A stretch of 61,751 nucleotides of DNA, the filler included, from Squatina squatina (lineage: Eukaryota), in NCBI GenBank assembly GCA_031763465.1. It is 4 parts of 4 records of this genome, joined end to end, with 100 filler letters (N's around TTAATTAATTAA, not from the genome) between each part and the next. Parts side by side here need not be neighbours in the genome. Positions count along the whole stretch, not along the records: positions 32,981 to 48,299 come from JARFOE010557049.1; 3 more parts are not named here. One strand, 5' to 3'. This document shows, in pieces, positions 1 through 61,751 of this stretch (positions are counted from its first letter, which is position 1; the number at the start of each line of letters is the position of its first letter). The translations under genes were made by a program, and so were the position numbers. A model generated the notes under the pieces. It had not been told where the DNA came from, did not search any database, and saw only the letters and a program-made list of their open reading frames with translations.

Positions 1-90
1 CTCCACAGATGCTGCCTGACCTGCTGAGTATTTACACCATTTTCTGCTTTTAGTTCAGATTCCAGCATCTGCAGTATTTTGCTTTTGTAT
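1..90 (+). mobile_element. 3' tail of Penelope-derived, hammerhead-associated short repeat (ribozyme core would lie just upstream of the window)
   Basis: CTCCACAGATGCTGCCTGACCTGCTGAG...TCCAGCATCTGCAGTATTTTGCTTTTG matches the tails at 27490-27590, 43737-43830, 51758-51825 and 61592-61680. Confidence 0.8.
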
Positions 91-15023: not shown

Positions 15024-15080
15024 ATAAAGCGCAGCTCAGTAGCAAAACAACAAACCCAGACTGTCTCTTAAGCACCGATC

Positions 15081-16610: not shown

Positions 16611-17329
16611 AAATTAGATATTTTATTAAAAAGCAAAATGAAAATATCTGGCTCTGCCGCATTTATTGCATGTAATTTGAGAGTTAGAATAAGTGTGATA
16701 TATTTGCTATTATTAATTTGATGACTTAGGGGTGGGATTTGGTGCCAATGAGTGAGGCAGGCAATAATTATTTGCTAAAATACATCATTTTACATTGTTT
16801 CTCTCAAACAAACATAATGAAAAATGCTTCAAAATATAACAAAGCGATAATAGTAAGTGGGAAAGATAATTTGTAAAGAAATTACACTGACTACTGAAGT
16901 TAATGGTATGGAACTCCATCTAAATTTACCTCATAAAGTTGAAAACAATCAGCATGTTCAAGGATTTAAATGAGGTCTAAAACAATATTGAATTGAGTTT
17001 GTTTATTGCAGTAAAATGAATCAAACTACAATTAAGTATTTGAGCCTGCTAATGTCAGACAAATATGAGCCACATAATGCAGTTATTTTATAATTAAGAA
17101 ATAATAGGCCCATAGTGAGTTTTATCCATTGATTAAGTGTCATGATTCGCATAGTTCAGCCTACTTTCTCACTAAGCACATCTTGTGGTGATCAGGTGGT
17201 TACATAAGTGAGTTTGTAGCTGTGTAAACTTTGCTAGAGTTAGGCATGGGAGATTATGAAATGACAAAGAAAATTACAGAGGAGATCAGTAGTGCTGGAT
17301 ACATCATCAGCTTTCATATATACTTTAAA

Positions 17330-17476
17330 AACTTCATTCATGGGATGTAGTCGTTGCGGGCAAGGCCAGCATTTATTGCCCATCCCTAATTGCCCTTGAG
17401 AAGATGGTGGTGAGCTGCTTTCTTGAACTGCTGCAGTCCGTGTGGTGAAGGTTCTCCCACAGTGCTGTCAGGTAGG
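17330..17476 (-). mobile_element. LINE 3' end (CR1-like family)
   Basis: Reverse complement of the 3' tail at 48460-48550 (GCTCACCACCA..TTCTCAAGGG.AATTAG.GATGGG.AATAAATGCTGGCCTTGCC). Confidence 0.75.
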
Positions 17477-18644: not shown

Positions 18645-19208
18645 GGGGCCGAAATTGTCCTGTTCTGCACCTCCCGTTAGCACCTACGGGAGTTGCTAAA
18701 GGGTCGCGAAACTGTTTTCGCCCAGGGGGGTGAGGTGGTGGGGCGGCAGTGCTACCAGCTCCCGTGATATTGTGTGGGAGTTAGCAGAGGTGCAAACATG
18801 GTAGCGCCGCGCTGTGCCCCGCTATTGCGCCCCAGGCTGCTGCGCCTCCGGCGATGACCTCGTCACCATGAGCGTCCCGCGGCGAACACCCTTTCCTCGT
18901 GGGCCATGAACTGGGTCAGCCTCCACTCCCGGGGCGGAAGTTAAAAGGGAGGTGCGCTGCGCTGCACGCTGCCATTTTTTTCTTCTGCCATTTCACTGGT
19001 CAGCCCATTTTCCATTGATGTCGTGTGCTCTGGGCCGCGATCATGCAGCCCACACTCCATTTGGGTGCTTGAGATTGCGTTCCATTTCCTGTGAGGGCCG
19101 GTAACCCAAATTCCATGGCCGGAGCAGGTCTTCCGCACCGGGCACAGGAAGCTCTGCCCCGACTCGGTTACCGCCCCCAAACGGGATGTAACCCAATTTC
19201 GACGCCCC
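18645..19208. mobile_element. Complete GC-rich MITE with terminal inverted repeats (PIF/Harbinger-like)
   Basis: Left end CTA|GGGGCCGAAATTG, right end CAATTTCGACGCCCC|TAA; ~560 bp, no coding capacity. Confidence 0.7.
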
Positions 19209-20049
19209 TAATCTCTCCGGTAGGTGGAAAACACGTTACTGACAGATAATATACTTTAGGCTTAACTACAGATTTTATTTATTATAACCTAAAAATCTAA
19301 ACTGAATCAAAATAAACCAGTCGAGCGAGAGAGCAATACTGTATCTGCACTGACACATTCAAATGTTTTCAGAAACCAAAATAGTAATAGTGCTTGATGT
19401 CTTGGAGAATCCTTTCCAGAATTCTTAAATTGAACCGCTTCATGCCTTACACGGAGTATATTTCTGGCAATACAGAGTTCGAGCTCACTGCCTTAATATA
19501 GTATGCTCGGACTGAGTTAACTAAATGTAAGCAGTTATTGCAAGGGCTTATGCCAAAAGAAATGTTTCATGTAGTTTCCAGACAACAACTACCTTACTTT
19601 TAGAAGATCTCCTGATACGTCAGACATTATAGATAATTGTTTTTCCGGCTCCCTTAGTTGGCCCATTTGTACATGTACTGCTTTTCAAAAGCCTGAGGTG
19701 TTTAGTCAAATAATCTGGACCTGATGCAATTAGTATGTCAATTACCCTCTTCCTGGATGTTGATTGAGCTCAAACATGCCCACAGAAAGATGCACAATGT
19801 TTGTGGTTTAATTTAAGCTTAGACTACGAAGGAAGTACTTTCAGTAGTAGCTAGCAGGACTCTATTTTAAAGTCCCAGTACATGGGCCTTGCTTCAATTT
19901 CATACGAAGATATATAGCATAGAAATATTTTATTACATGGAAGTCGCAGCCATCAAAAAGAGTGTTCCCAAAGCAAGAGAATGGCCAATGTGACCTTTAG
20001 CAAATTGTTAGTGAGTAACATTGCTATAGAGAAATTGTTTGCCTATATT

Positions 20050-20370
20050 TAAAGAAAGAAGGAAGACTTGCATCTCTATAGCACCTTCTAACTCCAAGAA
20101 GTATCTCAAAGTACTTTACGCAATGAATTACTTTTCAGAGTACAATAACTGTTGTGCTCACCAGAAAGCTAGTTTCAACTGACTTTGTGCACAGCAAGAC
20201 CTTGCAAAAGGCAATGAGGGAAACAATTAATCGGATTTTTTGATGGTGTTTGTTGAGGGTGGAAAAGTGTCCAGGACACCAGAACTCCGTATCCTCCATG
20301 GAATCTTTAATTTCCATCTGAAGTAAAGAAAAAGGCAGACAGACCCTCATGTCTCAGTCTCATCTAAAGG
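20050..20370 (-). mobile_element. Decayed DeuSINE
   Basis: AAGAAAGAAGGAAGACTTGCATCTCTATAGCACCTT tail and TTGAGGG...CCAGGACACCAGAACTCC, reverse complement of the 12510 family. Confidence 0.65.
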
Positions 20371-21209
20371 ATTTATTACTTATTGTTGTGTGTAATTGGG
20401 ATGTGCATCTGTAGCCTACCATTTAAGGTGCAACATTTCAGAATACCAGTCTGTTGTACCACAGTGCCACTCTACTGGATCGCTTACATTTGTGTCTGTT
20501 TATAATTATATCAAGGGAAAAGCTTGTCACTTGGAATAGGATTGTTGTAAAGAGCTTTAGTATGTCCAATATCTATTGTGGTTTTTTACTGAAGCAAAAA
20601 ATGGGGTCTGAAAAATTAGTTATATAGTTCATTTGACACGGACCAAAACGTTGACTGCATTAGATTATTTTCTGTCCATATACCAATTTGCTTAGTAATG
20701 AGGTTCTTGTCAAAACTGACTGTCCCTGAAAATAGGATGTGGTATAGCCAGAAGCAAAGCAGATAAATTCATTCAGGATATTTTTATAAATGCCAAAGCA
20801 TCTGTTATCATTGCAATACCTGCATCCATTCTGAATTTTATATAGAAGTAGTTCAACGGTTCACTGTGGGGGCAGCAACAAAGCAACTCCAGGTACTGAA
20901 AGGACCTATGTCCCGTGTAAAAGGTTAGTGATCTAATTGTATTTATCATGTCACCAAAGAGCATTCTGAATATGTTAATTAAAAATATCTTCATTAGAAT
21001 TCAGTTTCTTTTTTCTGGGGCAAACATGCAGTTACAGGCTCTGCAGCCACCGCCACCACCCGCTCCAGGCAGCTTAAGCTCCTCGTTTGCTTCTTTTACT
21101 GATTTTCATCCCAAATTTGGCAACTTGTAAGATTTCTTGAAATCCCATGATTTGTGTGTGTCAGTGCTTGGGTCTGTGGTTGAGAATTTTTTTAAATTTT
21201 AATTTTCAC

Positions 21210-21600
21210 CCCTTGACTCCCCTTCTCAAGGAGTTAATTCTTGCTGGGGTACAGATCCATAAGCACTGTCAGCTCTGGCACCTGACCTAACAGGCCATTT
21301 TCGTGTATAAGTCCAGGCAGTGAATATCATTAGGATGTTTGACACAAATGCCATCGCAGCCAAGCCTGATTCCATCCTCACCCAATTTTGACACATGAGG
21401 ATTTTACAGCAGGATTCCTTGAATCAGAATCTGGTTGAGTTTCTCCACCCTTCCCACGACTGCCGCCCCATCACCATTAGCCCAGGAGAATGAAAGCCCA
21501 TTGTAGCATTGCATTGCTGCCCTGGTTGAGATCAATTAACTCAGTGCACACCAGGGGTTCAGCCTGGGACTTCGTGGTTTGCATGACTCAGTAATACACT
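21210..21600 (-). mobile_element. tRNA-derived SINE (second family)
   Basis: GGTTGAGATCAATTAACTCAGTGCACACCAGGGGTTCAGCCTGGGAC...GACTCAGTA head-like region, shared with 5770 and 24321. Confidence 0.55.
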
Positions 21601-22059
21601 GTCTACTAAATATCGTGAGATATTTGTAATGTCTTCTCTGGTCTCTTCTCCAGTAATTTAACAAAAGGTACAAGCAAATAAGGAGCAGTTATGCATCCTT
21701 CCACTTAACTCTTTGAGTCACCAAAATAATGAATAGAGCTCACACTTGTAATCAACTTTTAAATAATAGTGTATCTTTTTAAAAATGTCTTATCACCACG
21801 GGGGCCTAAGTAATCTAAACTATATCTGGCAAATTTCAAACCACTTTCTTTTTCAGAGTTTCAAACTGGTTACTTTCAAAGAATCTCAATGTTGACTCTT
21901 GATTTTAAACAGAACCCTCCTTTATATTCCAAAAAGAGTTACCAGGACTTGTGGGATTTTGGGTATCTAACTATTCAAACTTAAAAAGGAGTTGTCAGTC
22001 ATAAACAAACTGAACCAATCACCCAGCATTAACGTAAGTTTGAATAGTACCTCCTTTCA

Positions 22060-22205
22060 TCCGTTATCAACGAAACTTGCAGCAGAGCTGCCATGCTTAT
22101 GTGTATCAGAACAATGACTACACTTCAAAAGTAATTTGTGTGAAGTGTTTGAAGATATTTCTCAGATGTGTTAAAGCACTATATAAATACAGGTCTTTCT
22201 TTTTC
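22060..22205 (+). mobile_element. DeuSINE/L2-type 3' tail
   Basis: ACAATGACTACACTTCAAAAGTAATT...GTTAAAGCACTATATAAATACAGGTCTTTCTTT. Confidence 0.6.
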
Positions 22206-23439
22206 CTCCTTATTTCTGTGGTTCAGTGGAGCAGAGAAGTTGAGAATGGCTCCAGTCAAAAGGGAATTACATCAGCACATCGACTTTCCTGTGATTGTGC
22301 CAACGGGGTTGANNNNNNNNNNNNNNNNNNNNNNNNNNNNNNNNNNNNNNNNNNNNNNNNNNNNNNNNNNNNNNNNNNNNNNNNNNNNNNNNNNNNNNNN
22401 NNNNNNNNNNNNATTCAAAGATCTCCAGAAACTTTTGATTTAGAAACTCTTCACTTCCACCTTGAAGAGCTGACCCTGACAGCTGCTGTGTCTCGTGGAA
22501 CTCTGTGTAACTTACCCCGAGCACAGTACCAAACCCAAGAAACTCAGAGCTGCTTTGCCACTGTCTCTAGACTTGACATGCTCAAAGTGCACCCTATAGC
22601 AACACTGGCAATGTCACAGGAGAGCTGTGGAAGCTCAAGGAAACTTGAGGGTAGCTATATAAAGGCAGAAACTGGGCTGAAATGGCTTCCACCTAAATTT
22701 CTTTGCAAAAAAAGTTTCCTATGTTGTTCCCACATGCAAAGTGCAGCAGAAACGGCGAGCAACTCCATCCCCTTCTTTTTTTGACCCTGCTGAAGGATAT
22801 CAGAAAGAAACCAGTGAAGCTGTTGATAGTCTGAGCANNNNNNNNNNTCACCCACGTGCCAGGAACACTACACATGCCGTATTGAGTGATTAATCGATGT
22901 TGCAATCGATACAGTACAACCTTAAGCTTAGTCAGCCCTCATTGAACTCTCCCAGGTGGTCTTTGGCAGATCTTTTGCATATGTGTTAATGTAGTTGGTT
23001 TCCATTGTTGGGTAATTGCCCTAGCTTGGCAGATTGGCTTCTAATAAGTTAATACTACAGTTCAAAAGTTTGAGAAGTTTCAGGTTTGGATATTTTTTTT
23101 TCACTGAACCACAGCAGACGTGGAATGATGACATGAACCCCTTAGGCGCAAACCCACATGCAATTCTAAATATGACTACAATTGGTAGGGATTGGGGTAC
23201 TACTCAGGAAAAGCTGCTATCTGTTAGCTGAAAACCCTGCAAAAAAAGCTTATTCAACTGGTTTGTCTATTTAACTCTTTCACGAACAAGTTCCAAACTA
23301 TTGTAATTTCAACTGATTTTTACAGCTAGCTGTATTTTATTGCTATTGGAAAAGACTCTATCATAAATAAAATTGCTTGGTCACTTAGTCAGATACACAA
23401 GTGTCTGGATGGACTAATACTAATTGTCCTCAGAAGTGT

Positions 23440-27489: not shown

Positions 27490-27627
27490 GATACAAAAGC
27501 AAAATACTGCGGATGCTGGAAACTGAAATGAAAATAGAAAATTCTGGAAATACTCAGCAAGTCAGGCTGCATCTGTGGAGAGAGAAACAGAGTTAAGGTT
27601 TCAGGTTGATGACCCTTCGTCAGAACC
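27490..27627 (-). mobile_element. Short Penelope-derived element with hammerhead core (27591-27627)
   Basis: Reverse complement reads GGTT CTGACGA AGGGTCATCAACCT GAAA CCTT AACT followed by the family tail. Confidence 0.85.
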
Positions 27628-32980: not shown

Positions 32981-34700
32981 TGCCTTTTAGCGAATTTCGT
33001 ATCCATGTTGCCACTGTCCCTTTTATTCCATGGGCATTCACATTGCTGGCAAGCCAACTACGTAGCACGTTGTTGAACACATTTTGGAAATCCAAATACA
33101 CCATGTCAACCGCCTTTGCCTCGTCAACCCTCACCACGATCTCATCAAAAATCTTGATCAAGTCAGTTAAACACGACTTGCTTTTAACAAATCTGTGTTG
33201 GCTTTTCTTACTTAATCCAAACTTGCCAAGTGACTGTTCATTGTGTCTTGATTATTGTTTCTAAAAATGTCCGCACTACCAAAGGTTAAACTGACTGGCC
33301 TATAGTTCTTCGGTTTATCTTTACACCCTTTGAACAAGATTGTAGCATTTGGAGTTCTCCAGTCCTAAGGCACCACCCCCTATGGTTGATTGGAAGATTA
33401 CAGCCAGGACCTGTGCGATTCCAATTACCTCCTCTACCTCCTCCTTCACTGTGTATATGGCAGTATCTTCTTCCTTATTGAAGACAGATGCGATGTACTG
33501 ATTTAATACCTCAGTAATACGCTCTGCTCCATGCCTACATCTCAATTTTGTTGCTGATCAGCCCCACCTATTCTCTTACTACTGTTTTCTTATTTTTATG
33601 ACAACAGAAGATATTTGGATTGCATTTTATTGGTTCCCATTCTATTCTCATTTGCCCCTCTTACTTTCTGGTTCACTTATCCACTGAACTTTGTATTTTA
33701 AGCCTGATTCTCAGATATATTCTGGACCTGACATCTGTCTTACACGCACTTTTTCTGCTTCATCTTAATCTCTATTTTCTTCATCATGCAGTGAGCTCTG
33801 CCTTCAGTTGCCCTATATTTCCACCTACCGTGAATGCACCTCGACTGTATCCAAACTATTTCCTTTTTAACTGCAGCCCATTGTTCCACTGCAGTTCTGC
33901 CTGCCAATCTTTGATTCTAATTTACCCGGGCCTGAGCTATTCTCATCCCAATGAACTATGCCTTCCTCCAATAAATATTTGAATCTAGATTGCTCCCTGC
34001 CCTTTTCCATAGTTAACCCATACATTATGATACAATGATCACTGTTCCCTAAATGTTCACCTGCTGACACTTCCTCCACTTGACCTACATCATTTCCCAA
34101 AACCAGATCCAGCAATGCCTCCTTCCTCGTTCGGCTGGAAACATACTGAACAAGAAAGTTCTCCTGAACATACTTCTGAAATTCTTCCCCCTCTCTGCCT
34201 TTGCACAATTACTATCACAGTCTATATTAGGAGAGTTGCAGTTCCCCGTTATCACTACTCTATACTGCTTGCATCACTCTGTAACATCTGAGCAAATTTG
34301 CTACTGCATGTTTGTCTCATTAGTTGATGACCTGTAGAAAACATGTAGTAGTGCAATGACACGTCTGTTTTGCTTAATTCGAGCCATGTAGTTTCCGTCC
34401 TAGTCCCCTCCAGGCTGTCGTATCTCTCCCCAGCTAGGTAGGGTCGGGGTTAAATTTCCAGGGTCTGCGGTAACATTCTGCAACATTCTCCTTATTCAAT
34501 AAAGTCATACCAAGCCCTATCTTTCCTGGACTCCCTATATCCAAAAATATTTAACACCCAGTTCTACCATTTTTTGTGCCAGGTCTCCGTCATTGCTACG
34601 ATATCATTTTCCCATGTGCCTACCACTTATCAACCTTGTTCATTTTGCTTCTTGCATTCACATACATACATTATAAAACGATCTGAGACCACCCGGTGTT
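32981..34700 (-). mobile_element. Decayed CR1 LINE ORF2 (endonuclease to RT)
   Basis: TRKEALLDLVLGN...HLGNSDHCII and AVDMVYLDFQNVF..V...L...NAHGIKG motifs on the minus strand. Confidence 0.9.
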
Positions 34701-34974
34701 TCCTCTTAGTCTAACCCCACCCAGTAGCCTTTGGTATTGGAGAGTAATTGCCATATGTTAACACTTATGACGGCAGCTTCCATCACTTTGCTGATTATTG
34801 ATTGTAGAATGAGAGGGCGGTAATTGGCCATATTGACCAATAGTTGCCAGTGTTGTTGCCCGCTGCATGAAAATAGATATTAAATACCTTCCAGCCCAAC
34901 CAGCCGCAGCCTGACGTACAAACCCTGCCAAAGTGATGCTGCTTGTTGCTCGAATTGGCTGATCATTGCAGCAA

Positions 34975-36440
34975 TAGCAACGTTCATTTATACAGCGCCT
35001 TCACTTAGTCTAACGCCCCAAGGCACTCCACAGGGGCGAAATCAGAAAGTATTTGACACCAAGCCACATAAGGATATATACGTTCAACGCAGTAAGTTTT
35101 AATTAGCACCCTAAACTAGGAGAGTGAAGTAGAGAGGTTTAGGTACAGCAATCAAGAGTATAGGGCACTGACAGCTGAGGGAAACGCCAGCAATTCTGCA
35201 GTAAAGGAAGTGGGTGATGCAAAAGAGACCAGAGAAGAAATAGCGCCGAGATCTCAGAGAGTTTTCGAGCTGGAGCAGGTTGCAGACATAATGAGGGACG
35301 AGGCCATGGATGGTTTGAATATGAATATGAGAATTGCAAAATGGAGACATTTCTGGAACAGTAGTCAATATAGATCAGCAAGCACAGGACAGATGTATGA
35401 ATGGGACTGGTTGCGAATTATGTTATGGGCAGCAGACTTTTTGGATCTCACGTTTACGGAGGGTGGTAGATGGGAGGCTGCAGAGGATAGTATTGGTAAA
35501 GTCAAGTCTGGAGATGCCAAACCATGGCTGAGGCTCTTAATAACAGATAGGGTTGAGCTGATCAATATTACACAGTCTTTTGAAGGAGAGGATATGGAAT
35601 TAACAGCTCAAATAGAAAGCAGAGGTTGGCAACAATCCCGTTCAACCTTAGACACTGGCCAGGGAGAGTGATGGAAATGACGGGTGTCAGACCTGCGGTT
35701 TTACAACACAAATGCAGTGGAGTGGTTAAGAGGCGTGATGGTTCGGTAGAGCAGTGTGTCATTGGTGTACATATGAAATCTGAAGATTTTTCTGACAATG
35801 CTGCCAAGGAGCAGCATATAGATCAGAAATAGGAGCGAGCCACAGACAGATTCTTGGGGAACTCTGGAGGTAAACGGTGCGGGAGCAGGGAGATAAGCTA
35901 CTGCAGGATATTCTCCAGCTCTGACTCTGAAGGTGCAGGTGGAAGCAGGTGATGGCTGTCCCACAGAGCTATAAAAATCAGGCGAGGATTTGGAGGAGGA
36001 TGGTGTAGTGAAACTTGTCAAGAGGGAAATAATGAAGAGGGATTGTGCACCAAGGTCACAACCACATGGGACATGACTTGTGATTTTCCTAAGGCCCGTT
36101 TCAGTGCTGTGGCTGGGGTGGTAACAAGATTGGGGAGATTCCAGCATGGGGTTGTGTGAAAGATAGGCAAGGATTTGGGCAATGGAAAAGACATTCATGC
36201 TATTTGGAGGTGAAAAGGAGGTTGGAGATGGTGCTGCAGTTTTCAAAGATAGAGGGGCCAGGTGTGATTTGCTCGGAAGAGTTGATGAGGTCAGATTTGG
36301 AAGGGCATGGAACAATACTGGAGCAGAGGGAATCATTCTCAATATCAGCCAGCATGGGGCCAGGGAGTGAAGTGGATGTTCGGCAATTTAATGGGAGGAG
36401 GGTTGAGAGAGTAGGACACAAAATTGAGTCGCAATCTGAG
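34975..36440 (-). mobile_element. Decayed L2-clade LINE (RT and 3' tail)
   Basis: QSCYHPSHSTETGLRKIT, VPQESVCGSLLFLIYMLLLG, FHMYTNDTLLY (degenerate YADD); tail shared with DeuSINEs. Confidence 0.85.
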
Positions 36441-36444
36441 TTCT

Positions 36445-37352
36445 GAGGATGGTGGAAAAAGGCTCCAAGATGATATAGACGGGCTAAGTGAGTGGGCAAG
36501 AACAGGCCAGATGGGATTTAAGGTGGAAATTGTGACATTATCCACTGTGGCAGGAAAAACAGAAATGCTGAGTATTTTCTAAATGGTGAGGGCTTGGGAA
36601 ATGCTGATCTTCAACGGGACCTGGGTGTCCTTGTAGACGAGTCACTGAAAGCTTACATGCAGGTGCAGCAAAGAATTGTGAAGGCAAATGGTATGCTGGC
36701 CTTTATTACAAGAGGATTTGAGTACTGGAGTAAAGATGTCTTGGTGGAAATATATAGGGTCTTGGGGTGACTGCACCTGGAGTATTGTGCACAGTTTTGT
36801 TCACCTTACCTTAGTAAGGATTTACTTGCCATAGAGGGAGTGCAAAGAAGGTTCATCAGACTGATCCCTGTGATGGTGGAATCGTCGTATGAGGAGAGAT
36901 TGAATGGACTAGTCCTGTATTCTCCAGAGTTTAGAAGAATGAGAGGTGATCTCATTGAAACATCCAAAATTCTTACCGGGCTGGACAGGGTAGATGTGGC
37001 GAGGATCTTTTCTCTGCCTGCGGAGTGGGTGGGGGGGCTCCAGAACCATGGACAAAGTCTCAGAATAAGTGGTAGACCAGTTAGGAATGAGATGATTAGA
37101 AATATCTTCACTCAGAGGGTGGTGAATCTTTGGAATTGTCTACCCAAGACGGCTCTGGAGGCTCAGTCATTGAGTATCTTCAAGACAGAGATCGATAGAT
37201 TTCCATATGAAAGACATCAAGGGATATAGGGATAGTTCAAGAAAATGGCATTGAGTTAGAAGATCAGACACGATCTGGTTGATTTGCAGAGCAGGCTCGA
37301 GAGGCCAAATGGCCTATTCCTGCTCCTATTTCACAAGTCCTTATATTCTTAT
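36445..37352 (+). mobile_element. CR1 LINE 3' portion
   Basis: QRRFIRLIP...YEERLNGLVLYSPEFRRMRGDLIET...FTQRVVNLWNCLP and 3' UTR ATGGCCTATTCCTGCTCCT. Confidence 0.92.
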
Positions 37353-40300
37353 GAACTGGGACACTTGGACAAGAGGAGCTCGGAGATGGCATTCCTGAAA
37401 ATAGGGGAACATGAGGAATTGAGGAGAATACAGTAACTGTGTAATTAGAAAGAGATAACAGGCAAATTTAGAGAAAACAGCAAATGTTTAATTAGAAATG
37501 GAGGATTGGGTAATTTGCGGGAAAAATGAGGTACTGATAAATTAGAAACATAGAACAGCAGAATTATGGTGAATACTGCGGCTGTTTAGTTGTAAATGTG
37601 GATCGGGGGTAGATATTAATCATTTATTTAGAAGTATGGGAAATGGGAAGATACTAACTGTTCAAAAACAACTGGAGGTTTCGAAAGTGTCAGGGAAACA
37701 TTAATTGTTTCATTGAAAACAAAGGCGAGAATCACAATCTTATGGGATGGAACGTGACATGGTAATGCAATGGTTAAATTTGCTTCCTAATTTCCCTATT
37801 GGCTTTGGATGATGCTGTTTGATTGCAAACCGATTCCTCCGGATTGTAGCTGGGTGCAGTCGCATCACAGTTTGATGGAGTTAAAACCTCTGCCTGCAGC
37901 GTGACTGGTCCCTTATGTACGGTTGGTCGTCTGATTCCAGTTAAGTGAGCGTGTGCCTCTTACACACAGCTACCTGCAACTCACAATCACTGCCCTAAGA
38001 AGCTGGACAGAGGCCGGATTGGTCGAGCTCGGGCCCCACGGGGACCTGCAACCAAGTGGAGTTTGTCTATTGGAGAAGCTCAGGATCAAGTGGAAATTTG
38101 AAAGGAAATTAATAAATTAAACTCATTCACAATTAAAGTACTGAAGCTATTGTTAGCGAAATGTTTTCGTCAGGTTCTTGAACATTGGAGTGAGGTTTCA
38201 GAGGCTTATTAAGCACACAGTATATGCAATAGTGCTTTACCATACAAGGTATGTTAATACCCTCAACCACAGCTCCTGACGGCTGGTTGGGGATTCAAAT
38301 GTGTTGTTCTAAAATCAGTATCTTAGACATTACAAAGGCTCATTGCAAACTGACACTGTTCTACTGCTTGTACATGGTAATCCACACAATATTACCTTAC
38401 AGAAATATATAAAAGTTAAATTACAATATCGAGTATATAGGTAAATAGAGAATGTAATCATGGATTCATCTTTCTGCAATGATATTGTTTCGTGGTAAAA
38501 GCACCTTTTCCTTTGGGATAAACGTATAATTTATTTAGTTCTCTATATCATCAATAACTTCAGTCTTGATCCAGTTAATTGCAAAACGACCAAGTGAAAC
38601 CTTTGATTATATGTCAATTGTTACTTCTGTATCATTCTGTAACAATCATGATGCCAGTCCAGATGTTTTCCTTTAGATAATTGACAGCTTTTCAACACTG
38701 TTGTCAAATGATTAAAAGTTCTCTGCAATGTATCAATCAGTTTGCAATGACATGTTTTAATTGCATTTCTTTTGCTTCATCTTGAAACTGCCTATAGCTG
38801 CAGGGTCAGTCCCGCCCATCAGCCCAGTGCTCGATAAATAGCCTTATTATAAATGGCGTGCTTAACAGGCCAAGTCCAAAGATGACTGCAAAGTTGAGAT
38901 AAAGAATACATATAACATGAACAGACTTCAGGACCTTCCGGTTATCACGTCTTTTACATTGCACTCTGCCGTAGCGTTATATTATTTAAGGTCAACACTA
39001 AACTATATCTTGTCAGCTGTTTATAGATACATCGGTCTATTCTATTGCACATATGTCTCAGCTCTCCAGAGCCATGTTAACCATTTCTCAAGTGGAGGGT
39101 AAACGCGGACAAGGACTGGTTGAGTAGAATGATCTGTTTCCCTGATAACAATTTCCAACATTTTGAGCACCAGCTGAGAATTCGGTAAATATCTCCGAAC
39201 AAAATATCTAATGTCACATGGACTAGTCAAGTTCCTGCTGTCTCTATCATTAGACACTGACATGGAGTCAGGGCCCCGTTCTATTTGTCCAGGAGACAAT
39301 GGAGGGCGGAGTCTGAGGGTGAGACCAGCGCCTGCAACATTCACACCAAGATTGCTAATTACAACGAACCCTAATTGTTGCACATTGTTTCTACACTAAA
39401 GGGAACTTTATTATTTAACCTGGGGCATCTCATTCCAGTGCCTGCAAAGTAAGGCAGTTAACGCTGGCGCCCACATGTTCCACTTCACTGCTGAAGCTCA
39501 ATCATGACTGTTCTCTTTGATTCCTGAGCGGGAATTGCTCTGTTTCTGATCATCCTGAGAAAGCAGCAGACAGCTAGCACACGGCACAAAGTGGAAGAAG
39601 TGTCACCTGATTTTCACAACACTAATCTATCTACCTGTCTACCATCTATCTGCCATCCCCTGAGAACGGATTTCTATAATGTTACAAAGCGTTGTTAGTT
39701 CGGCGACAATAACTCCGCTTGTGATTCATGCTCAATTGTTTTTTTTATTTAATTATAAGCTTTTTTGCAGCTGGTGCTTTTTTTCTTCCATTGATAAATA
39801 ATGACACACAAATGATACAAAGTGTTTCCCAGGCTGCGACACCCTGCGAGAATGTTCTCTAATTTCAGAGAACAAGACAAGCCCGGGACTGACCAGCTCC
39901 ATCTCTCCAGGCCCACCACGCGGCTGTGTTGTGCCAGACCCTCGAGAACGGCCTGGTCGTAAGGGGACATCGTTTTTTTCTTATACTGTAACACAACATT
40001 GACCAGTGCTTAAATAATATGCAGATTGTTCGTTCAGCTGAGGCTGCAGCCTATAATTTTTTGAACCACTGCCTCTGTGCTACAAGTTTTATGTTTAGCC
40101 CATTCTCTATAAGGGTATACATGGAGAGAGGATTAAATTGCCCTTCTCTCACATTTGCTCCACTACTAAAATGATAAAAGAAATGAATGCTGTCATAGAT
40201 TGACGTTTTCAATCAACTTAAACCATTCTAGCATCCCCGTAATATAATCAATGTAATTATTGGCTTCCAGCGAGAGGAGGTTCTATTCTCATACATATTA

Positions 40301-40529
40301 AAGTAATGGTCGTACTTGGCTTGTTTGCTCTTGTTGCTGACTCGGAAGTTATCATTCCAAAAACATAAATGTGTGCTCCACATCTGCTCTGCATTGAGAT
40401 AAGGAACGAATTAATATTAATCAATGTGTTCCAGGCTCTTTTATTCGCTGTAGCTGGGAGATATAACAGCGAATCGATGCTAATATCACTGATGCTTAAG
40501 GTCCTTCGTATCTGTGTAACTTTCTGGGA

Positions 40530-41250
40530 CTCCAGTGGTACCGACCAGTACCGGTGGAGCGTGGTTACATCCATTGCAAGTGGAGGGTTACCACGGTCAC
40601 AGGGGAAGCATGGTTACCACGAGTGTAATTTTGTGATTCCATTGTTACTGGAGTAGCAGGCTCATTACTCGTGTTAGTGCCGCTACCAACAGAGAAGCAT
40701 GGTTACCAGTAGTGTAACTGCAGAGTACCAATAGTACTGAAGGACTACCGTCACCTCGAGATGAAGCACTTGTACAGGAGGAACCCATGGACATCTAGTA
40801 GCAGTGGAAGGTTACCACCAGCATGTTCAATGGTAGAATTAGTTTACTGCTACTGCTATTACCATAGGAGCGCGTTCAAGTGCAGGCATGCTTCTGGTAT
40901 TGAGGAGCATTGACAAATCTCGTGTAAGTGTAGGGGCGCCAATAGTACTGAAGGAGCACGACTGGTACCGAAGGAGCAGAGACACTTCCAATATCAGTGC
41001 AGGGTACCTGTAGTACTGCAGGAGCACGGTCACCTGCAGTCTAAGTGTAGGGTTCCATTTAATCAGAGGAGTACAGTCATGACTTATGCTACCGGACTGC
41101 GTTTGCCCCCATTTTTGCAGGATTTGTTTCACGGCCTCTAGTGGAGGAGTTGGGGAAAGAGAAGAGGATCAAGGCCTGGGTCATGCCGATTAGTACAAGG
41201 GAAGCTGCCATTACCAGGCGTGTCGGTATAGGGTCATCAATAGTACTGGG
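40530..41250. repeat. Degenerate ~48-bp tandem repeat array
   Basis: Units resembling AGCATGGTTACCAGTAGTGTAACTGCAGAGTACCAATAGTACTGAAGG start near 40607, 40696, 40906 and 41023, with partial units between. Confidence 0.7.
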
Positions 41251-41409
41251 AGATTTCACTTTCCACTGGTAGAAAATGTTTTAATTATGTAATGTTAAAA
41301 GGTCCACTAACAATTTCACACATTTTTTCTAACCTGACGTTTCAGACATGAAAAACAACTTCATTGAATCTATTTGTTAAATGACTGTAACTAATGCTAA
41401 TTATGCTTT

Positions 41410-41460
41410 AACCTGATTGATACTCTGGAGGATTGGTGTGCGGATAAATAGAGGTTCCCT
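41410..41460 (+). promoter_or_regulatory. Putative core promoter of the GPR139-like gene
   Basis: Inverted CCAAT (GATTGG 41431) and TATA-like GATAAATAG (41443) about 85 nt upstream of the ATG. Confidence 0.4.
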
Positions 41461-41529
41461 TCAATTGCCAGAGCCGTGCGCCAGTCAGAATCACTGAGCT
41501 GCTAAATATTTCGTCAGTTCTCACAGAAA

Positions 41530-42946
41530 ATGGGGGGACCAGTTATTCTACTGATTAAAGAGATTTACTATCCGATTCTAGCAGCCGTCGGTGTCCCCGG
41601 TGAGCCATTATATAACCTGTTTGCTGTTAATCGGTTTTACCTGTCGCCCTGTTCATAAAGCCTGTTTGAAAAGGTAATATCTTTCATTGATGTCAGCACA
41701 GCCGTTAGGAAACGAGTTCCTGAACCGTGTGTCTGCACTTCCCGTGTTACTCTTAATCTGATAACATTAAGGTAGTTAAACTGTTCTCTGAAGCTCCAAA
41801 TCCAGGATTTTAGCGGATTTCTGGACCATACTCTCACCCTGTGCGGAGTGAGCACTGCAGCAGCTCAGTAAAATGTGTGAGTGGGTTTCCCAAGTAATGG
41901 CTCCAATACTAATCCAGTTCTCACCCTGCCCCATGTTGATAATCACACACAATAATGTTACATTTTCTCAACAGTTATCTCCATATGTATATCAGTCAGA
42001 CATTGGATCATTATTTCACTCCTCTCTCTTTCTTACAGCAAATTTGATGACTATTGTGATTCTCTCCCGAGGAAACTGCGGCCTTTCCAAGTGTATCTCT
42101 GTCTACATGGTGGCCATGGCAACAGCAGATCTACTGGTCATGATCTTCAATGTAATGGTATATTATATTTTCAGTTATCACTTTCCACTTTCCTTCCTGT
42201 CCCACACTCCCGTGTGTAAGTTCATTCTATACATGACTACAGTCAACCTTGACTTGTCTGTTTGGTTCACCGTCTCCATCACATTTGACCGATTTGTCGC
42301 TCTCTGCTGTCAGAAGTTTAAAACAAAGTATTGCACCGAGAGAACTGCGGTCTCAGTTATAACAGCTTTCACGGTCTTGATCTTTTTAAAGGACATCCCT
42401 GTTTTGTTTGCAGTTGAACCTCAGCAAACAGTTAACGAGGTGCAGTGGGGCTGCGGGTTAAGTGCGGCATTTTTTTCCTCAGATGCAGGTGTAACTTACG
42501 TCTGGTTTCACAGTGCCTGGGTCGTTTGGCTTCCTTTTTCTGTTATTGCCTTGTTTAATTATTTGACAATCTGACGTATTTTAGTGGCCAATGGAGCCCG
42601 CAGAGGACTCCGGAGTCACAAGAGTCAAAATCAGTGTGATCCAGAGATGGAGACCCGAAGGAAATCCATCATTTTACTCTTCACTATATCGGGCAGTTTT
42701 ATATTGTTGTGGCTAACATATGCCGTGGGTTTGGTAACTACCATACTGGCAAACCCCATTTATTACCGAGGCGACCTCACAGACCCTGGATATATCGCCA
42801 CTGAAATCGGATCCATGCTGAAGTATTTGAGTTCCTGTCCGAACACGTGTATTTATGCAGCGACCCAGAGGAAGTTCAGAGAAGAGCTGAAGAATGTGCT
42901 GAAATCTCCCTGGACCCTGATTCTGAGTTTAGTGGAAAAATACTAA
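41530..42946 (+). pseudogene. GPR139/GPR142-like orphan class A GPCR (exon 1 41530-41599, exon 2 42039-42946) with a single in-frame TGA at 42572-42574
   Basis: Exon 1 MGGPVILLIKEIYYPILAAVGVP G|GTGAG; exon 2 TTACAG|CA ANLMTIVILSRGNCGLSKCISVYMVAMATADLL, TFDRFVA, RRKSIILLFTISGSF, NTCIYAATQRKFREEL; the two provided ORFs are in the same frame. Confidence 0.88.
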
Positions 42947-43736
42947 TGAAAAGAACCAAGTCAAAGGACCCCTTCCTTGTAACAAAAGTTGAATTTCAAC
43001 TCATTTTCCATGTAAAAATATCCTTCTTTCTGGTAATATAAACAATGGGAGAGTTCATGCGTAAACATTTCTTCCACCATGCGTTTGATGTCTGATTTAC
43101 ATCCGCTTTTCACACTTCTTTCACTTAGTAAACATAACCTATTCCTGCAAATTCAGCACATTTCAAGTTCAGGGACCAAAGATGAGATTCAGCAGTGAAG
43201 TCAGACAGGTGGGTAACAGAGGATTCCACCTCACACTGCAGGTACTGGGATCGGACATGCCACTTTAAAATCATCAATAAAGTTTAATTCAGTGCTGTAA
43301 CGATCAAAGGGGGTGTGATCGGCCATACGGGTAATTTTCATCGGAGCTCGGGTCTCTCGATCAGATATCATTCCTCATTGGCAATGTCATGGGATCAGTG
43401 TTAGAATGAAGGAAATTGTCTGAACTCAGTTCATCGACGTGACCTTTCACACCTTTTGTCACAGATACTGACTGAAAATCTCGATTGTCCACGTACTGGT
43501 TTCTCTCATTCAGCAAAAAGACGGAGTCTGCACTTGTGCGCTGTCGATAGAAGTAACATGAGTAATACTGATCATATTCTGTCAGTCAGTCTCTTAAACA
43601 AAAGATTAAATGAATGTAATAATGAATATTTAAGCATAACATTATTAACTAATACAGTTGATTCAAGTTATCAATTAAACAAATACAACCAGAAATTCCG
43701 ATGAAATCAACCTGATCTTCAGTATCCTGTACAACA

Positions 43737-45890
43737 GCAAAATATTGTGAATGCTGGAATGCGAAAGAAAAACAGAAAATGCTGCAAACACTCAGCAGGC
43801 CAGACAGCATCCGTGGAAAGCGAAATAGAGTTAACGTTTCAGGTCAGAGACCTTTCATCAGAACTGAATAAGTTAGGGATGTAACAGATTTTAAGTAGGT
43901 GCAGAGGCAGTAAAAGCGGGAGGGGAGGGAAGAACAAAGGGGACGATCTGTGATAGGGTGGAGGGCCGTAGTGATCAAATGTTGCAAGTGAGAATGTCAG
44001 AAAGATCAACAGATGGCGCCGGAAAACTAGCGGCGTGAATTATGGACTGAAATTTTTGAAGAGGATGTTGAGTCCGGAAGGCTGTAAAGCGCCTAATCGA
44101 AGGATGAGGGGCTGTTCTTCGAGCTTGCATTGAGCCTCGTTGGAACAGACCAGGAGACCGAGGACAGGCAGGTCAGATTGGGAGTGTAGCGGAGAATTAA
44201 AGTGACAGGCGACCGGAAGCTCGGGGTCACGCTTAGAGACTGAATGGAGGTGTTCTGCAAAACCGTCAGCCAGACTGCGTTTGCTGTCCCCAATGAAGAG
44301 GAGACCGCATCACCAGCAGTGAATAGAGTATAGTAAATTACATAAAGTACAAGAAAATCGCTGTATCACCTGGAAGGTTCGTTTCAGGCCCTGAATTGTG
44401 GGAAGGGAGGAGGTGAAGGGGAGGAGTTGCATCTCCTGCACTTGCACGGGAAGGAGCTGTGGGAAGGGGAGAGGGTGATGTGGGTGATTGAAGAGGGGAC
44501 CAGGTGTTGTGGGGGAATGGTCGCTTTGGAATGACGAAAGAGGAAGGGAGTGGAAGATGTGTTGGTGGTGGGATCATACTGGAGTGGCAGAAATGGCAGA
44601 GGATGATCTCTTGATTGATATGGTTATTGGGGTGGAAAGTGTGGATTACTGGTTATGGGAGGCAGGCGAATGGGTGAGAGCAGAGATGCGGCAAATTGGA
44701 TAGACAGGGTCGAAGGTCATGTCAACCAAGGTAGAGGGGAATCCTCGGTTGAGGAAAAAGTAAGATATATTGAACGCGTTCGTATGGAATGTAACAATGT
44801 CAGAACAGATGAGATGGAGATGGAGGAACTGCGAGAATGGAATTGAGCCCTTACAGGAAGCAGGGTGGGAGGAACTGTAGTCCAGGTAACAGTGGGAGTG
44901 AGCCGGCTTACAATAGATGTTTGTGGTTCACCTATCCCCTGTAATGGAGACAGATAATTCGACGAAGAGAAGGGAAGAGTCAGAGATTGTTCATGTGAAG
45001 GTGAGTGCAGGGTGGAAATCTGAAGCAAAGTGAATTAAATTTTCCAATTCTGGATGAGACCAGGAAACAGCACCGATACAGTCATCAATGTTGCAGAAAA
45101 AGAGGTTATGGACGTGGCCTGCTAGGAGTCGTACAAAGAATGTTCCACAAGTCCCAGGAAAAGGCAGCCATCGCTAGGACCCAATAGGGTTACCTTCGAA
45201 ATACCTTTAATTTGGAATAAGTGAGTAGAATCAAAGAAGAAGTTGTTCAATGTGAAAACTAGTTCTGCCAGGCGGAGGAGGGTGGTGGTTGATGGAGATT
45301 ATTGGGCCTCTGTTCAAGGAAGGAGCAGAGCGCCGTCAGGCCATCTTGGTGAGGGATGGAAGTTTAGAAGGATCGGATTTCCATGGTGAAAAGGAGATGG
45401 TTGGGTCCAGGAAACTGGAAACTGTTAAACTGGCGGAGGCATCAGAACAGTCCCGAATGTAGGTGGGAAGAGACGGGGCAAGAGGAGAAAACATAGAGTC
45501 GAGATAGGAAGAAATCAATTCCATGGGCCAAGGAAAGACTGAAACAATGGGTCTTTCATTTTAGATGTTGGGAAGGAGCAAGAAGCGGGTTGTGCAGGGT
45601 TGGGGGAGTATGAGGTTGACCGCCGTAGTAGGAAGATATTAAGTGGAGATGAGATCACTGTCAGCCTTGGAAACAATGGAGTAGTATTTGGTAGTGGCGT
45701 CATGGTCCAAGGGAAGGTAGGAGGAGGCATCAGAGAGTTGGCATTCGGTCTGCGCATTGCAGAGGTTGATTCGCCAAACAACAACAGCACATCCTTGTCA
45801 GTAGGTTTAATGACAATGTTGGGGTTGGATCTGGGAGCACAGAGTGCTGCGAGTTCAGAGGGAGGGAGGTTGGAGTGAGTCAGGGGAGCA
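43737..45890 (-). mobile_element. Penelope-like retroelement (RT + GIY-YIG endonuclease), decayed, with 3' pLTR
   Basis: Minus strand: NIVIKPTDK, ELISSYLDSMFSPL..SLPTYIRD, NIDDCIG (YIDD), and NLLYSIHC..CGLLFIGDSKRSLADGFAEHLHSV..RDPELPVACHFNS. Confidence 0.92.
43829..43865 (-). ncRNA. Minimal type I hammerhead ribozyme (intact core)
   Basis: AGUU CUGAUGA A AGGUC-UCU-GACCU GAAA CG UU AACU: stem I AGUU/AACU, 5-bp stem II, loopless palindromic stem III (ACGU), GUU cleavage triplet. Confidence 0.85.
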
Positions 45891-46349
45891 GAGAAATTGT
45901 CAGTCCATATTAATTTATCTCACACTGTATGTGTTCCTGGATTCCAGATTCCCATTTTATGTGAACACTGTAATTACATATTCTCACACAAGCCTCAATG
46001 ATTCCCATGTGTTCTAATTTGAATAATTATCCAACGGCATTTGCTGGGCCTTACTTTTTACCTGCTACATTTATTGGATAATTAAAACATATTTTTCTTC
46101 ATTCTTAATATTTATCCCGACATAGAATCCACGGTGCCTCTTATTATGTTCTAACTGGATGAATCCATTTTAGTTCCACATCCACCAGCTGTTTGTTAAC
46201 CACTTTCTGCTTTTGTACTCCAGTGCTGGGATCTCCCAGACCTGCTCCATTGTGGAGTCCCACACACACAGTCGACGGATTATGGGACAACTCCTCAGCT
46301 TTCATTTCATTGACATGAACAGAAGATCGCTAGCAATGCAAGTGGCAGA

Positions 46350-46520
46350 GAATCGTAGAATCATGGAAGCACACGAGGAGGCTATTTGGCCTGTCATGCC
46401 CCTCCCAGCTCTTTGAAATAGGAATCCAATTAGTCCAAACCCACGGCCCTTTCCCCACAGCCCAGCAAACCAGTCCTTTCTAATTATGCATGCAATTACC
46501 TCTGAAAGTTACTAATTTTA
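46350..46520 (-). mobile_element. CR1 3' UTR fragment
   Basis: AGAATCATGGAAGCACACGAGGAGGCTATTTGGCCTGTCATGCC resembles reverse-complemented CR1 tails. Confidence 0.5.
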
Positions 46521-46529
46521 CAACAACAT

Positions 46530-46972
46530 CAGCAGTGGCTCTGCAGTAACACTCTCGCTCCTGAATCAGACAGTGGTGGGTTCATGTACTTCTCCAGAGA
46601 CTGAATAAATAATCTGTGCTGGTACTTCAATGCCGTACTGAGTGCACCGCACTGTCTTTCAGATCAGTTGTTAAACTGAGGCCCCGTCAGGTCTCACAGG
46701 TGGAAATAAAATATCCTGCAACAATATTTTAAAGAGAAGGGGAGTTCTCCACGATATCCGGGCCAATGTTCATCCCTCAACCAACATCACTAAAACAGAT
46801 TAGCTGGAAATTATCACAGTGCTTTTTTTGGGAGCGTGCTGTGAACAATTTGGCTGTCGCACTTTCTACATTGCAATCGTGTCTGCTCTTCAAAAATAAT
46901 TCATACACTGTAAATTTCTTTGTGAGGTCCTGGAGTCATGAACGAAGCTGCACACAAGCAAGTCTTTCTTTA
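46530..46972 (+). mobile_element. DeuSINE, near full length
   Basis: tRNA-like head (GTGGCTC...GGGTTCATGTAC), Deu domain and tail ending GCAAGTCTTTCTT; homologous to 12510-12821. Confidence 0.8.
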
Positions 46973-47059
46973 GTTATTAAGGAATCTGCTTCGATGACTC
47001 TTTCTTCAGGTCTTCTCTCCATCATTTGCCAGTTACTGACTATTGGTTATCAAGACATG

Positions 47060-48299
47060 AATAAGTAGTGGTAATGGAGGACACGGTATAAATCAGGAAC
47101 AAAGAAGTGCATGTACCAAAGGTAACACAGTAATCATTGGGAACTTTAATCAACATATAGACTGGGCAAACAAGATTAGCACTAGTGCTGTGGAGGGCGA
47201 ATTCCTGGAATGTATCGGAGATAGTTTTCTAGATCAGTATGTTGAGGAACCAATGAGGGAACAGGCTACTTTAGATCTTGTACTGTGCAATGGGAAGGGG
47301 TTAATCAATAACCTTGTTGTAAAGGGGCCCTTGGGGCTGAGCGACCATAATATGATAGAATTCTTCATTAATTTTGAAAGTGATGTAGTTCATTCCGAAA
47401 CTAAGGTCTTAAATCTAAACAAAGAAAACTATGAAGGTACGACGCATGAGTTGGCTGCGGCTGATTGGGAAACTAGACTCAAGTGTATGACGGTAGAAAA
47501 ACAATGGCTAAAATTTAAAGAAATAATACATAATTTGTAGCAAATATGTATTCCTTTAAGACACGGAAAACCAAAAAGAAAACTGGCCCAACTGTGGCTA
47601 GCATGAAAAGTTAAAGATAATGTTAAAACAAAGGAAGAGGCTTTTAAAGTTGCCAGAAAAAGCAGCAAGCCAGAGGACTGGGAGCATGTTAAAATTCAAC
47701 AAAGGAGGGAAATGAAAGTGATAAAGAAAGGGGAAATAGAACATGAGAGTAAACTAGTAAGAAACATAACAATGTACTGCAAAAGTTTTATGGGTATGTA
47801 AAAAGGAAAAGACTAGCGAAGGCAGATGTGGGTCCTTTACAGACAGAGATGGGAGAACTAATAATGGAGAATAAGGATATGGCAGGGAAGTCAAACAAAT
47901 ACCTAGTGTCTGTCTTCAAGGAGGAAAACACAAAAAAATTCCCAGAAATACTAAAGAACCAAGGATCTGGCGAGAATCATAAACTGGAAGAAAACCTGGA
48001 AGATGCAGGTTTAATAAACAATCTCAGAATAAAGGATCCCCTCGGAAGTAGTGATCATAACATGGTAGACTTTAGCATTCAATTTGAAAGTGAGGAACGT
48101 GAATCAGAAACAGCTGTGTTCAACTGAAATAAGGGGAATTATGAAGGACTGGGCAAATAGATCAGCAGGTAAGATAGTAGAGAAGCAATGGCAGACATTC
48201 AAGGAGATAATTCATGACTCTTAGCAAAAATACATCGCAGAGAGGAGGAAAGATTCGAAAGGAGGGACGAAACAACCATGGCTAACCAGGGAAGTAAGG
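47060..48299 (+). mobile_element. CR1 LINE ORF2 endonuclease region; two juxtaposed fragments
   Basis: FLDQYVEEPMREQATLDLVLCN...PLGLSDHNMIEF, and again at ~48000 INNLRIKDPLGSSDHNMVDF. Confidence 0.9.
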
Positions 48300-51662: not shown

Positions 51663-51825
51663 TACTAAAAATGCTGGAAAAACTCAGCAGGTCAGGCAGC
51701 ATCTGTGGAGAGAGAAAAAGTGTTCTGACGAAGGGTCATGGACCTGAAAAGTTAACTCTGCTGAGTTTTTCCAGCATTTTTTGTTTATATTTCAGATTCC
51801 AGCATCCGCAGTATTTTGCTTTTGT
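51663..51825. mobile_element. Fold-back Penelope-derived mini-element with hammerhead core (51721-51757, + strand) and 12-bp flanking direct repeat
   Basis: 24-bp perfect inverted repeat 51667-51690/51758-51781; core TGTT CTGACGA AGGGTCATGGACCT GAAA AGTT AACT; AGCAAAATATTC at 51651-51662 and 51826-51837. Confidence 0.85.
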
Positions 51826-52056
51826 AGCAAAATATTCGATATGATTCAAACTTGCACACAATATATTAAATAATGGTCATAAATTTACATATAATTATTC
51901 ATTTGAATGACAAACCATGGTTCTACAAGATTACACTCTGGCCGTTATATTGAAATNNNNNNNNNNNNNNNNNNNNNNNNNNNNNNNNNNNNNNNNNNNN
52001 NNNNNNNNNNNNNNNNNNNNNNNNNNNNNNNNNNNNNNNNNNNNNNNNNNNNNNNN

Positions 52057-54495: not shown

Positions 54496-54659
54496 CTAGA
54501 CAAGGGAGATAAGCCGTGAAAATTTATCAAGATAAAAATCAAGTACTTTTAGCAATATGCCCAGTCCCATCATGTCGAAATTAAAATTTGAAGTTATAAA
54601 TAGTAATATTAGTCTAAAATAGTGATGCAAATCAATACATTCTGAACAATTTAATGTAA

Positions 54660-55105
54660 AACCTGGGATGGTAGGGATGATGTACGAAGAGAGATTGGGT
54701 AGATTAGGCTTATATTCGCTCGGGTTTAGAAGAATGAGAGGGGATCTCATTGAAGGCTTATATTCGCTCGAGTTTATAAGAATGAGAGGGGATCTCATTG
54801 AAACTTACAAAATTCTAACAGGACTGGACAGACTAGATGCAGGAAGGATGTTCCNNNNNNNNNNNNNNNNNNNNNNNNNNNNNNNNNNNNNNNNNNNNNN
54901 NNNNNNNNNNNNNNNNNNNNNNNNNNNNNNNNNNNNNNNNNNNNNNNNNNNNNNAAGGAATGGTTAAAATGAAGCCAAGGAAGATACAGGGCTATAGGGA
55001 GAGAGTGTGAGAGTGGGATTAGTTTTGGATTGCTTTAACAAAGAACTGGCACACATACGATGGGCCAAATGGGCTCCTTCTATACTGTAAACACCTATGG
55101 TTCTG
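54660..55105 (+). mobile_element. CR1 3' fragment with an internal 48-bp tandem duplication
   Basis: YEERLGRLGLYSLGFRRMRGDLIE-GLYSLEFIRMRGDLIETYKIL. Confidence 0.85.
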
Positions 55106-59789: not shown

Positions 59790-60198
59790 TCATCAGATAT
59801 AAGAGCAGAGAGGTTGAACTGTATAAAATACTAGATAGGCCACAGCTAGAGTACTGCATATAGTTCTGGTCAACATATTACAAGAAAGATATGATTGCAC
59901 GAGAAGGTACAGAGGAGATTTACGAGGATGTTGCCAGGACTGGAGCATTGAGAAAAGAGTGGATAGGCTGGGGTTGTTTTCTTTGGAACAGCGGAGGCTG
60001 AGGGGCAATTTAATTGAGGTGTATAAAATTGTGCGGGGCATAGATAGAGTGGATAGGAAGGACCTATTTCCCATAGCAGAGAGGTTAATAACCAGGGGGC
60101 ATCGATTTAAAGTATTTGGAAGAAGGGCTAGAGGGGAGTTGAGGAGAAACCTTTTCACCCAGAGGGTGGTGGGGGTCTGGAACTCGCTGCCTGAAAGG
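59790..60198 (+). mobile_element. CR1 LINE 3' portion
   Basis: DRLGLFSLEQRRLRGNLIEVYKIVRGIDRVDR...FTQRVVGVWNSLPE. Confidence 0.92.
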
Positions 60199-60944
60199 NN
60201 NNNNNNNNNNNNNNNNNNNNNNNNNNNNNNNNNNNNNNNNNNNNNNNNNNNNNNNNNNNNNNNNNNNNNNNNNNNNNNNNNNNNNNNNNNNNNNNNNNAT
60301 GGCGTTATAAGGTTGGACCTCGGGCTCCTTATTGGGCAAGGTGGAGAAAGCTTTGCTTCGCTTCTAACTATGCTATATCTGCCCTGGGGTGTTTGCTGAC
60401 ACTGGGACCCTGAAATTGAGCAGAGTTATATCCCACATTAACATTACTCACCTTAATGAGCACAAAATTCAATTTAAAAAAAAAAAACATTTTTTTAAAT
60501 CCAAGCAACATTGTGTAACTCCGTGAGATGTTAGGTCAACCTTTTTGCATAGGTTTGTTGAAGTGAATTGCAATATGGATGATGATTTTTCAGAGTTCAA
60601 TCTTCCGTCCATTTGAATAATTGTGACACAATTTCAATCGGATTGTAGGTATCTATTTCATCTTCATATTCAGTGTTTTTTGTGAAATCCATTATTCCCT
60701 AATCAAACGTGTCTAAACCTCATTAGACTTCTAAATCAGAGCTGATAAGTGTGTTATCCACTTAGAAACTTTCTATTGAAATGTATTCAGAGAACACTAC
60801 AAAGCTGATATCAATTAAAATTAAATTCAAACAAATTTCTTGATAAGGAATGGCAGGAAATGTGGACATTAACTTGTACCATCGCCACTTGTAATAAAAG
60901 TGCAGTTACAATTATTATCCATATGCAAATATAGTCCCAATTAC

Positions 60945-61591: not shown

Positions 61592-61751
61592 AAGCAAAAT
61601 ACTGCAGATGCTGGAAATCTGCGATTAAAAACAGAAAATGCTAGAACTACTCAGCAGGTAAGGCAGTATCTGGGGAGAGGGAAATCATTAACGTTTTAGG
61701 TCGATGACCTTTCATCAAAACTGGAAAAGGTTAGAGATGTAACAGGTTTTA
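61592..61751 (-). mobile_element. Penelope pLTR-like copy with mutated hammerhead core (61687-61722)
   Basis: Reverse complement AGTT TTGATGA AAGGTCATCGACCT AAAA CGTT AATG; flanks match 43737-43895; runs off the window end. Confidence 0.85.

Follow-up and report, generated by a model that had tools for sequence, protein, structure and literature searches.

Between positions 43865 and 43829 on the minus strand of the analysed Squatina squatina DNA (the window, 61,751 nucleotides in all) we read a complete, 37-nt minimal type I hammerhead ribozyme (min-HHR). The interpretation we favour, with a probability of roughly 0.8, is that this motif sits at the 3′ pseudo-LTR (pLTR) of a broken, 5′-truncated and likely Neptune Penelope-like element (PLE), and that the lone copy is now likely an inert leftover. 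The initial annotation had described a full CUGAUGA...GAAA core, a stem I of AGUU and AACU, a 5-bp stem II and a loopless ACGU palindrome ahead of a GUU site; each of these is present (Table 1), together with an unpaired A and an A-U pair closing stem II that the annotation had omitted. From 5′ to 3′ the motif runs AGUU, CUGAUGA, A, the 5-bp stem II with its 3-nt loop, GAAA, CG, UU and AACU, which is a type I topology with a helix I of 4 bp and a helix II of 5 bp, and the fold model assigns the stem II pairs probabilities of 0.98–1.0. The predicted cut falls between 43833 and 43832 by hammerhead numbering.

Table 1. Coordinates of the ribozyme, its parent element and the family copies in the window
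Feature	Position	Strand	Basis or remark
Stem I 5′ arm, AGUU	43862..43865	-	pairs with 43832-43829
Catalytic core C3-A9 (CUGAUGA), intact	43855..43861	-	sequence and descriptor match
Unpaired extra A between A9 and 10.1	43854..43854	-	descriptor match; trait typical of PLE min-HHRs
Stem-loop II, 5 bp (AGGUC/GACCU), 3-nt loop	43841..43853	-	fold, alignment of window copies
Core G12-A15.1 (GAAA), intact	43837..43840	-	sequence and descriptor match
Helix III palindrome ACGU, loopless; pairs only with a second copy	43834..43837	-	sequence and descriptor match
GUU triplet; predicted scissile bond 43833/43832	43833..43835	-	sequence; site inferred from hammerhead numbering
Stem I 3′ arm, AACU	43829..43832	-	sequence, alignment of window copies
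Tail of ~100 nt after the ribozyme	43730..43828	-	end point common to all 5 window copies
3′ UTR / pLTR, 174 nt, pyrimidine-rich	43866..44039	-	between ORF stop and ribozyme; covered by family contigs
GIY-YIG endonuclease with CxxC/His and degenerate Cys linker (CxxxxCxx-S, last Cys lost)	44040..44475	-	
Degenerate Penelope-like reverse transcriptase (RT) and thumb	44476..45898	-	5′-truncated at residue 280 of the 904-aa relative
Short copy, ribozyme and tail	27492..27626	-	palindrome broken, one stem II mismatch
Inverted pair of family fragments	51668..51826	.	plus-strand ribozyme: C15.2 changed, 30-nt tail deletion
Copy running off the window end	61593..61751	-	C3 and G12 changed
Tail only; ribozyme part beyond the window	1..89	+	family similarity

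Descriptor searches single out the focal motif. It is the sole window match to the core pattern, which also matched in 1 of 100 shuffles, and to the full min-HHR descriptor, which matched in none of 300 block-wise dinucleotide shuffles; all window matches obtained when one mismatch is allowed are copies of the same family. A wider descriptor admitting helix III loops and core variants returned one match from the 164 core starts in the window, and with it no helix III of a stable monomer form was found in the focal motif. Rfam hammerhead models, proposed as a check in the initial annotation, gave no match over the window up to E 5, and the two Rfam matches obtained were to unrelated lncRNA models, far under their gathering scores. 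The folding energy of the motif is ordinary (z –1.39).

The motif agrees closely with the class of min-HHRs in PLE pLTRs defined by Cervera and De la Pena in 2014 (PMC4209133), as it has the intact CUGANGA...GAAA core with a NUH site, the palindrome at 15.2/16.2 that makes a loopless helix III, and the unpaired base between 9 and 10.1. It also shares with the members described in that paper the type I fold, a short helix I, a U-rich 5′ flank, the position at the 3′ pLTR and the presence of a single ribozyme in 5′-truncated copies, and its CGUU end recurs in 15 of the 56 aligned members (counted by eye). What differs is stem II, which is rather short with its 5 bp and is closed by A10.1-U11.1 instead of the usual G10.1-C11.1, a consensus trait found in more than 80% of members and no strict requirement; A-U is compatible with membership because it also occurs in 3 of the 56 (again by eye). 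Cartilaginous fish are absent from the species listed there. Judged by its sequence, we regard the motif as confirmed to be a genuine, sequence-intact min-HHR of this class.

The ribozyme was said to lie directly 3′ of a Penelope RT/GIY-YIG ORF; it does lie 3′ of it, but the motif begins 174 nt beyond the stop codon (44042-44040). Window positions 45898-44058 align to residues 280-901 of a 904-aa RT plus GIY-YIG protein (E 1e-76); ~6 stops and ~9 frameshifts interrupt the match, counts that come from a frameshift-aware alignment and depend on its penalties. The start at residue 280 and these lesions together indicate that the element is 5′-truncated and dead, as the initial annotation had held for the ORF. 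Pfam gave no match on the broken ORF pieces, and relatives were sought with read-through pieces carrying X at stops: for the RT piece, 15 of 141 candidates were relatives, the endonuclease piece gave 1,896 with E no higher than 0.001, and the 89-aa endonuclease piece had no match among longer proteins. RVT_1 and GIY-YIG occur together in 3 of the 4 relatives scanned, which supports a single-ORF EN+ PLE through intact relatives, and the endonuclease CxxC and His positions are invariant in a 7-sequence alignment. When 10 of the 165 relatives found were looked up, 7 were named, 6 of them shark or ray proteins and 1 from a sea urchin, which makes a cartilaginous-fish host, either shark or ray, likely. 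Penelope-like endonuclease pieces also lie inside the shark/ray gene models mucin-2 and receptor-transporting protein 3-like (P0020, P0023), where they are probably annotation artefacts or exonised repeats.

The CX2-5CxxC linker, degenerate in the window, is intact in 7 of the 8 relatives scanned. It marks Neptune and Nematis and not Poseidon (PMC8557442), and a published survey found only Neptune and Poseidon in the vertebrates that it sampled. Since the linker is absent from Poseidon and only these two clades occur in the sampled vertebrates, the parent element is likely of the Neptune clade, an assignment made from motifs. As in the Neptune EN+ PLEs of Craig et al. 2021 (PMC8557442), an RT, this linker and a GIY-YIG domain with CCHH are found in the focal element, and its family has the ribozyme near the 3′ end and inverted truncated copies; unlike them, the focal copy is truncated, broken and devoid of the last linker Cys. 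It lies within a gap-free stretch (32981-48299) and lacks the tandem pLTR-ORF-pLTR arrangement: neither the element nor the sequence upstream of it contains another pLTR or ribozyme. 5′-truncated PLE copies normally keep only the 3′ ribozyme (PMC4209133). No target-site duplication of the focal insertion was found. The 5′ truncation point and the ORF stop/pLTR junction share a 16-nt, 88% complementary inverted match (45894-45909 and 44041-44056) that recalls the inverted 5′ structures of PLEs and may be chance (5 such pairs per 3.1 kb).

The ribozyme-plus-tail unit is present in 5 copies in the 58,637 non-N bases of the window, the 4 others being 78–84% identical to the focal one. Of the 4 copies that bear the motif only the focal one is intact, the other 3 being damaged in core or palindrome; these lie 7.8–17.7 kb away across 5–15 assembly gaps, distances that are uncertain because the window is interrupted by 39 runs of N, the majority exactly 100 bases long. 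The cut site is followed by the end motif at 97 nt in 3/3 undeleted copies. Over the 4 window copies 39/43 stem cells are paired (14/15 in stem I), with 3 one-sided and 0 two-sided stem changes and no excess over shuffles; at 10.1/11.1 two other copies have G-U, a one-sided change from A-U. The fragments at 51668-51826 form a head-to-head pair, one on each strand, an inverted arrangement typical of PLEs. Both short copies with a visible 5′ end start within a few bases of the stem I 5′ arm (27623-27626 and 51722-51725), and if the element transcript starts at stem I such copies would be run-off cDNAs from an upstream tail site.

Only dispersed monomers and no tandem units occur in the window, so the copies here are not retrozymes. 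The non-LTR retrozymes of Cervera and De la Pena 2020 (PMC7229834) are likewise PLE-derived with a type I ribozyme, are non-coding, and have monomer derivatives that the short window copies resemble, but they form tandem repeats, whereas the family here is dispersed and the focal copy is attached to a PLE ORF. A preprint (Li et al. 2026, bioRxiv 10.64898/2026.07.22.740005) describes retrozymes from a single chondrichthyan genome, and its supplementary tables may include the present family. Our search of openly accessible papers found no published description of this likely Neptune ribozyme family of cartilaginous fish.

In 4 of 17 sequencing runs, from four other organisms, 10,680–23,066 contigs per run align to 43650-44250. 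The ribozyme-plus-tail family is high-copy, although contig depth measures neither copy number nor expression because the runs consist of contigs. Among the 40 of 124 difference rows listed, the 37-nt motif has 2 differences, both in loop II; as they are confined to that loop, the A-U pair and GUU appear to be the common family state and not damage. A depth drop at 43860-43880 was considered as a sign of 5′ truncation and ruled out, as the loose ends at 43866 run on into sequence of the family. The pyrimidine-rich tail was likewise rejected as a splice acceptor: the focal copy has no AG there, the AG form at 43812 is a minority in 3/4 runs, and the whole sense strand is 64–71% pyrimidine. The endonuclease end (44070-44240) is covered by very many contigs in all four runs at a depth comparable to that of the ribozyme region, which suggests that related families share it. 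A tail motif matched 2 loci in viral and 22 in metagenome collections, in each case by chance; 0/24 of these matches could be extended.

Published PLE work allows us to propose how the focal copy came about. In an active family, tandem elements would give one transcript with two ribozymes, the two ACGU palindromes would pair into helix III with stem I forming between the partners, and the cut after GUU would follow, likely at a slow rate and assisted by the element's protein. For the focal insertion, reverse transcription would have begun ~100 nt 3′ of the cut site and stopped after ~2.2 kb. Because the insertion spans the scissile bond, its template RNA would have been uncut or rejoined, and the window copies, which end ~100 nt past the cut site, likely came from uncut RNA. 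The focal copy would then have decayed. We propose that core and stems are conserved in the family because active lineages needed them; the focal copy itself most likely kept them by chance.

The closest assayed comparison is the Poseidon element PAc of Anolis carolinensis (Frangieh et al. 2024, PMC11167929). In PAc as in the focal element, the pLTR ends in the ribozyme, the tail behind it stops at a constant 3′ point, and insertions run across the cut site. PAc insertions extend 85–92 nt past that site, compared with ~97–103 nt in the focal family; PAc reverse transcription starts 111–118 nt into the ORF, the cut being at +26. Ribozyme mutants of this element still inserted and uncut RNA was the main substrate, and the ribozyme cleaved only with the element's protein (PMC11167929). 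PAc is intact and was assayed, and it differs in clade from the focal element, which has the Cys linker.

The dimer-dependence that the initial annotation took as established for PLE minimal type I hammerheads is so published for the class, and Lunse et al. (RNA Biol) reportedly found that PLE hammerheads cleave as dimers. For Schistosoma mansoni, no cleavage of the min-HHR monomer and low cleavage of dimers are described (PMC4209133), and in published work 1 of 9 Xenopus dimer elements cleaved, the other 8 remaining without cleavage. The further suggestion that this copy may still self-cleave fares less well: in the animal we consider it unlikely, because the 5′-truncated element has no upstream pLTR, second ribozyme or working protein, the 3 other motif-bearing window copies are lesioned, published monomers are inactive and the Anolis ribozyme needs its protein. 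It is possible that an engineered tandem dimer of the focal motif could cleave in vitro. In a nearest-neighbour model that ignores tertiary contacts and was run without a known-active control, the active dimer has –9.7 kcal/mol compared with –20.5 kcal/mol for the best fold, and in two longer contexts it lies 12.9 and 16.3 kcal/mol above the best fold within the same limits, which argues weakly against an active dimer. A hammerhead with A-U at 10.1/11.1 or with GUU as its triplet would be expected to cleave more slowly; our literature search found no report of what A10.1-U11.1 or GUU does to the rate.

It is nevertheless conceivable, though unlikely, that minus-strand RNA is made from the focal copy and cleaves in vivo, either in trans with family RNA or with Neptune protein supplied by an active element elsewhere. 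This would agree with the intact core, palindrome and stems, with GUU being a cleavable triplet, with a very abundant family (10,680–23,066 contigs per run) whose thousands of copies may supply partners in trans, and with the switching on of the Anolis ribozyme by its PLE protein (PMC11167929). However, even cis dimers cleave weakly, cleavage in trans needs 12 short intermolecular pairs that are predicted to lose to other folds, and for the Anolis element no in vivo reads were found at the cut site (PMC11167929). Nor is a minus-strand host gene seen at the locus: the closest candidate gene is a plus-strand GPCR, separated by ~780 nt from the 3′ end of the element, and its read-through transcripts would carry the ribozyme's non-catalytic strand. 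This GPCR (41852-42946) is intronless, of the rhodopsin family (7tm_1, E 5.5e-14) and, with an in-frame stop at 42572-42574, likely a pseudogene.

In a related and decidedly improbable scenario, the intact minority of copies, the focal one included, would be genome-wide latent cut sites in sharks at which the Neptune protein triggers the cutting of host transcripts. This assumes about 1 ribozyme-plus-tail copy per 12 kb in sharks, and intact copies would have to pair with each other, either in trans or over the length of a long pre-mRNA; the cutting itself would accompany expression of the element. Were it true that intact monomers cut host RNA, shark genomes would contain very many sites of importance to gene expression.

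That selection has kept the focal ribozyme for a host role, for example in ending or destabilising a transcript, is very improbable. Among the 40 of 124 difference rows listed, 0 differences fall in the 34 core and stem positions and 38 in the 281 flanking ones (13.5%), and at the flanking rate the chance of 0/34 is ~0.007. Local constraint would yield this pattern, but so would picking an intact copy from a very large family; the signal is blunted by the partial row list and because the copy was picked for being intact, with 1 of the 4 motif-bearing window copies in that state. At this divergence ~0.7% of copies would be intact by chance, which amounts to many in a large family. A co-opted monomer should moreover have acquired a stable helix III, and none is present. 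Hardly credible, and already largely refuted, is a chance resemblance to a hammerhead, which would fit the silence of Rfam, the z of only –1.39 and the lack of any pair changed on both sides among the 4 copies, but not the 0/300 shuffles, the agreement of the PLE 3′ end position and all four signature features with the published class, or the fact that all one-mismatch window matches are family copies.

On our preferred reading of the focal motif as an inert min-HHR of a likely Neptune PLE, the described ribozyme class would be extended to a Neptune family of cartilaginous fish. The family is more useful than the focal copy, as its very high copy number would permit a strong test of covariation and of strand depletion, and such family-wide tests would bear on whether PLE ribozymes act in vivo.

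The window also contains other gene-like and repeat sequences. After an assembly gap, a second GPCR-like ORF lies on the plus strand at 14184-15023, which by eye we take to resemble prolactin-releasing peptide receptors. A GC-rich plus-strand ORF (6705-7172), which encodes a long stretch of His as well as stretches of Gln, is likely the first coding exon of a host gene. A CR1/L2-type LINE-like fragment with an Exo_endo_phos_2 match lies at 47061-48127 on the plus strand, and further CR1/L2-type LINE-like fragments were recognised by eye at 36771-37229, 54626-54967 and 59839-60399.
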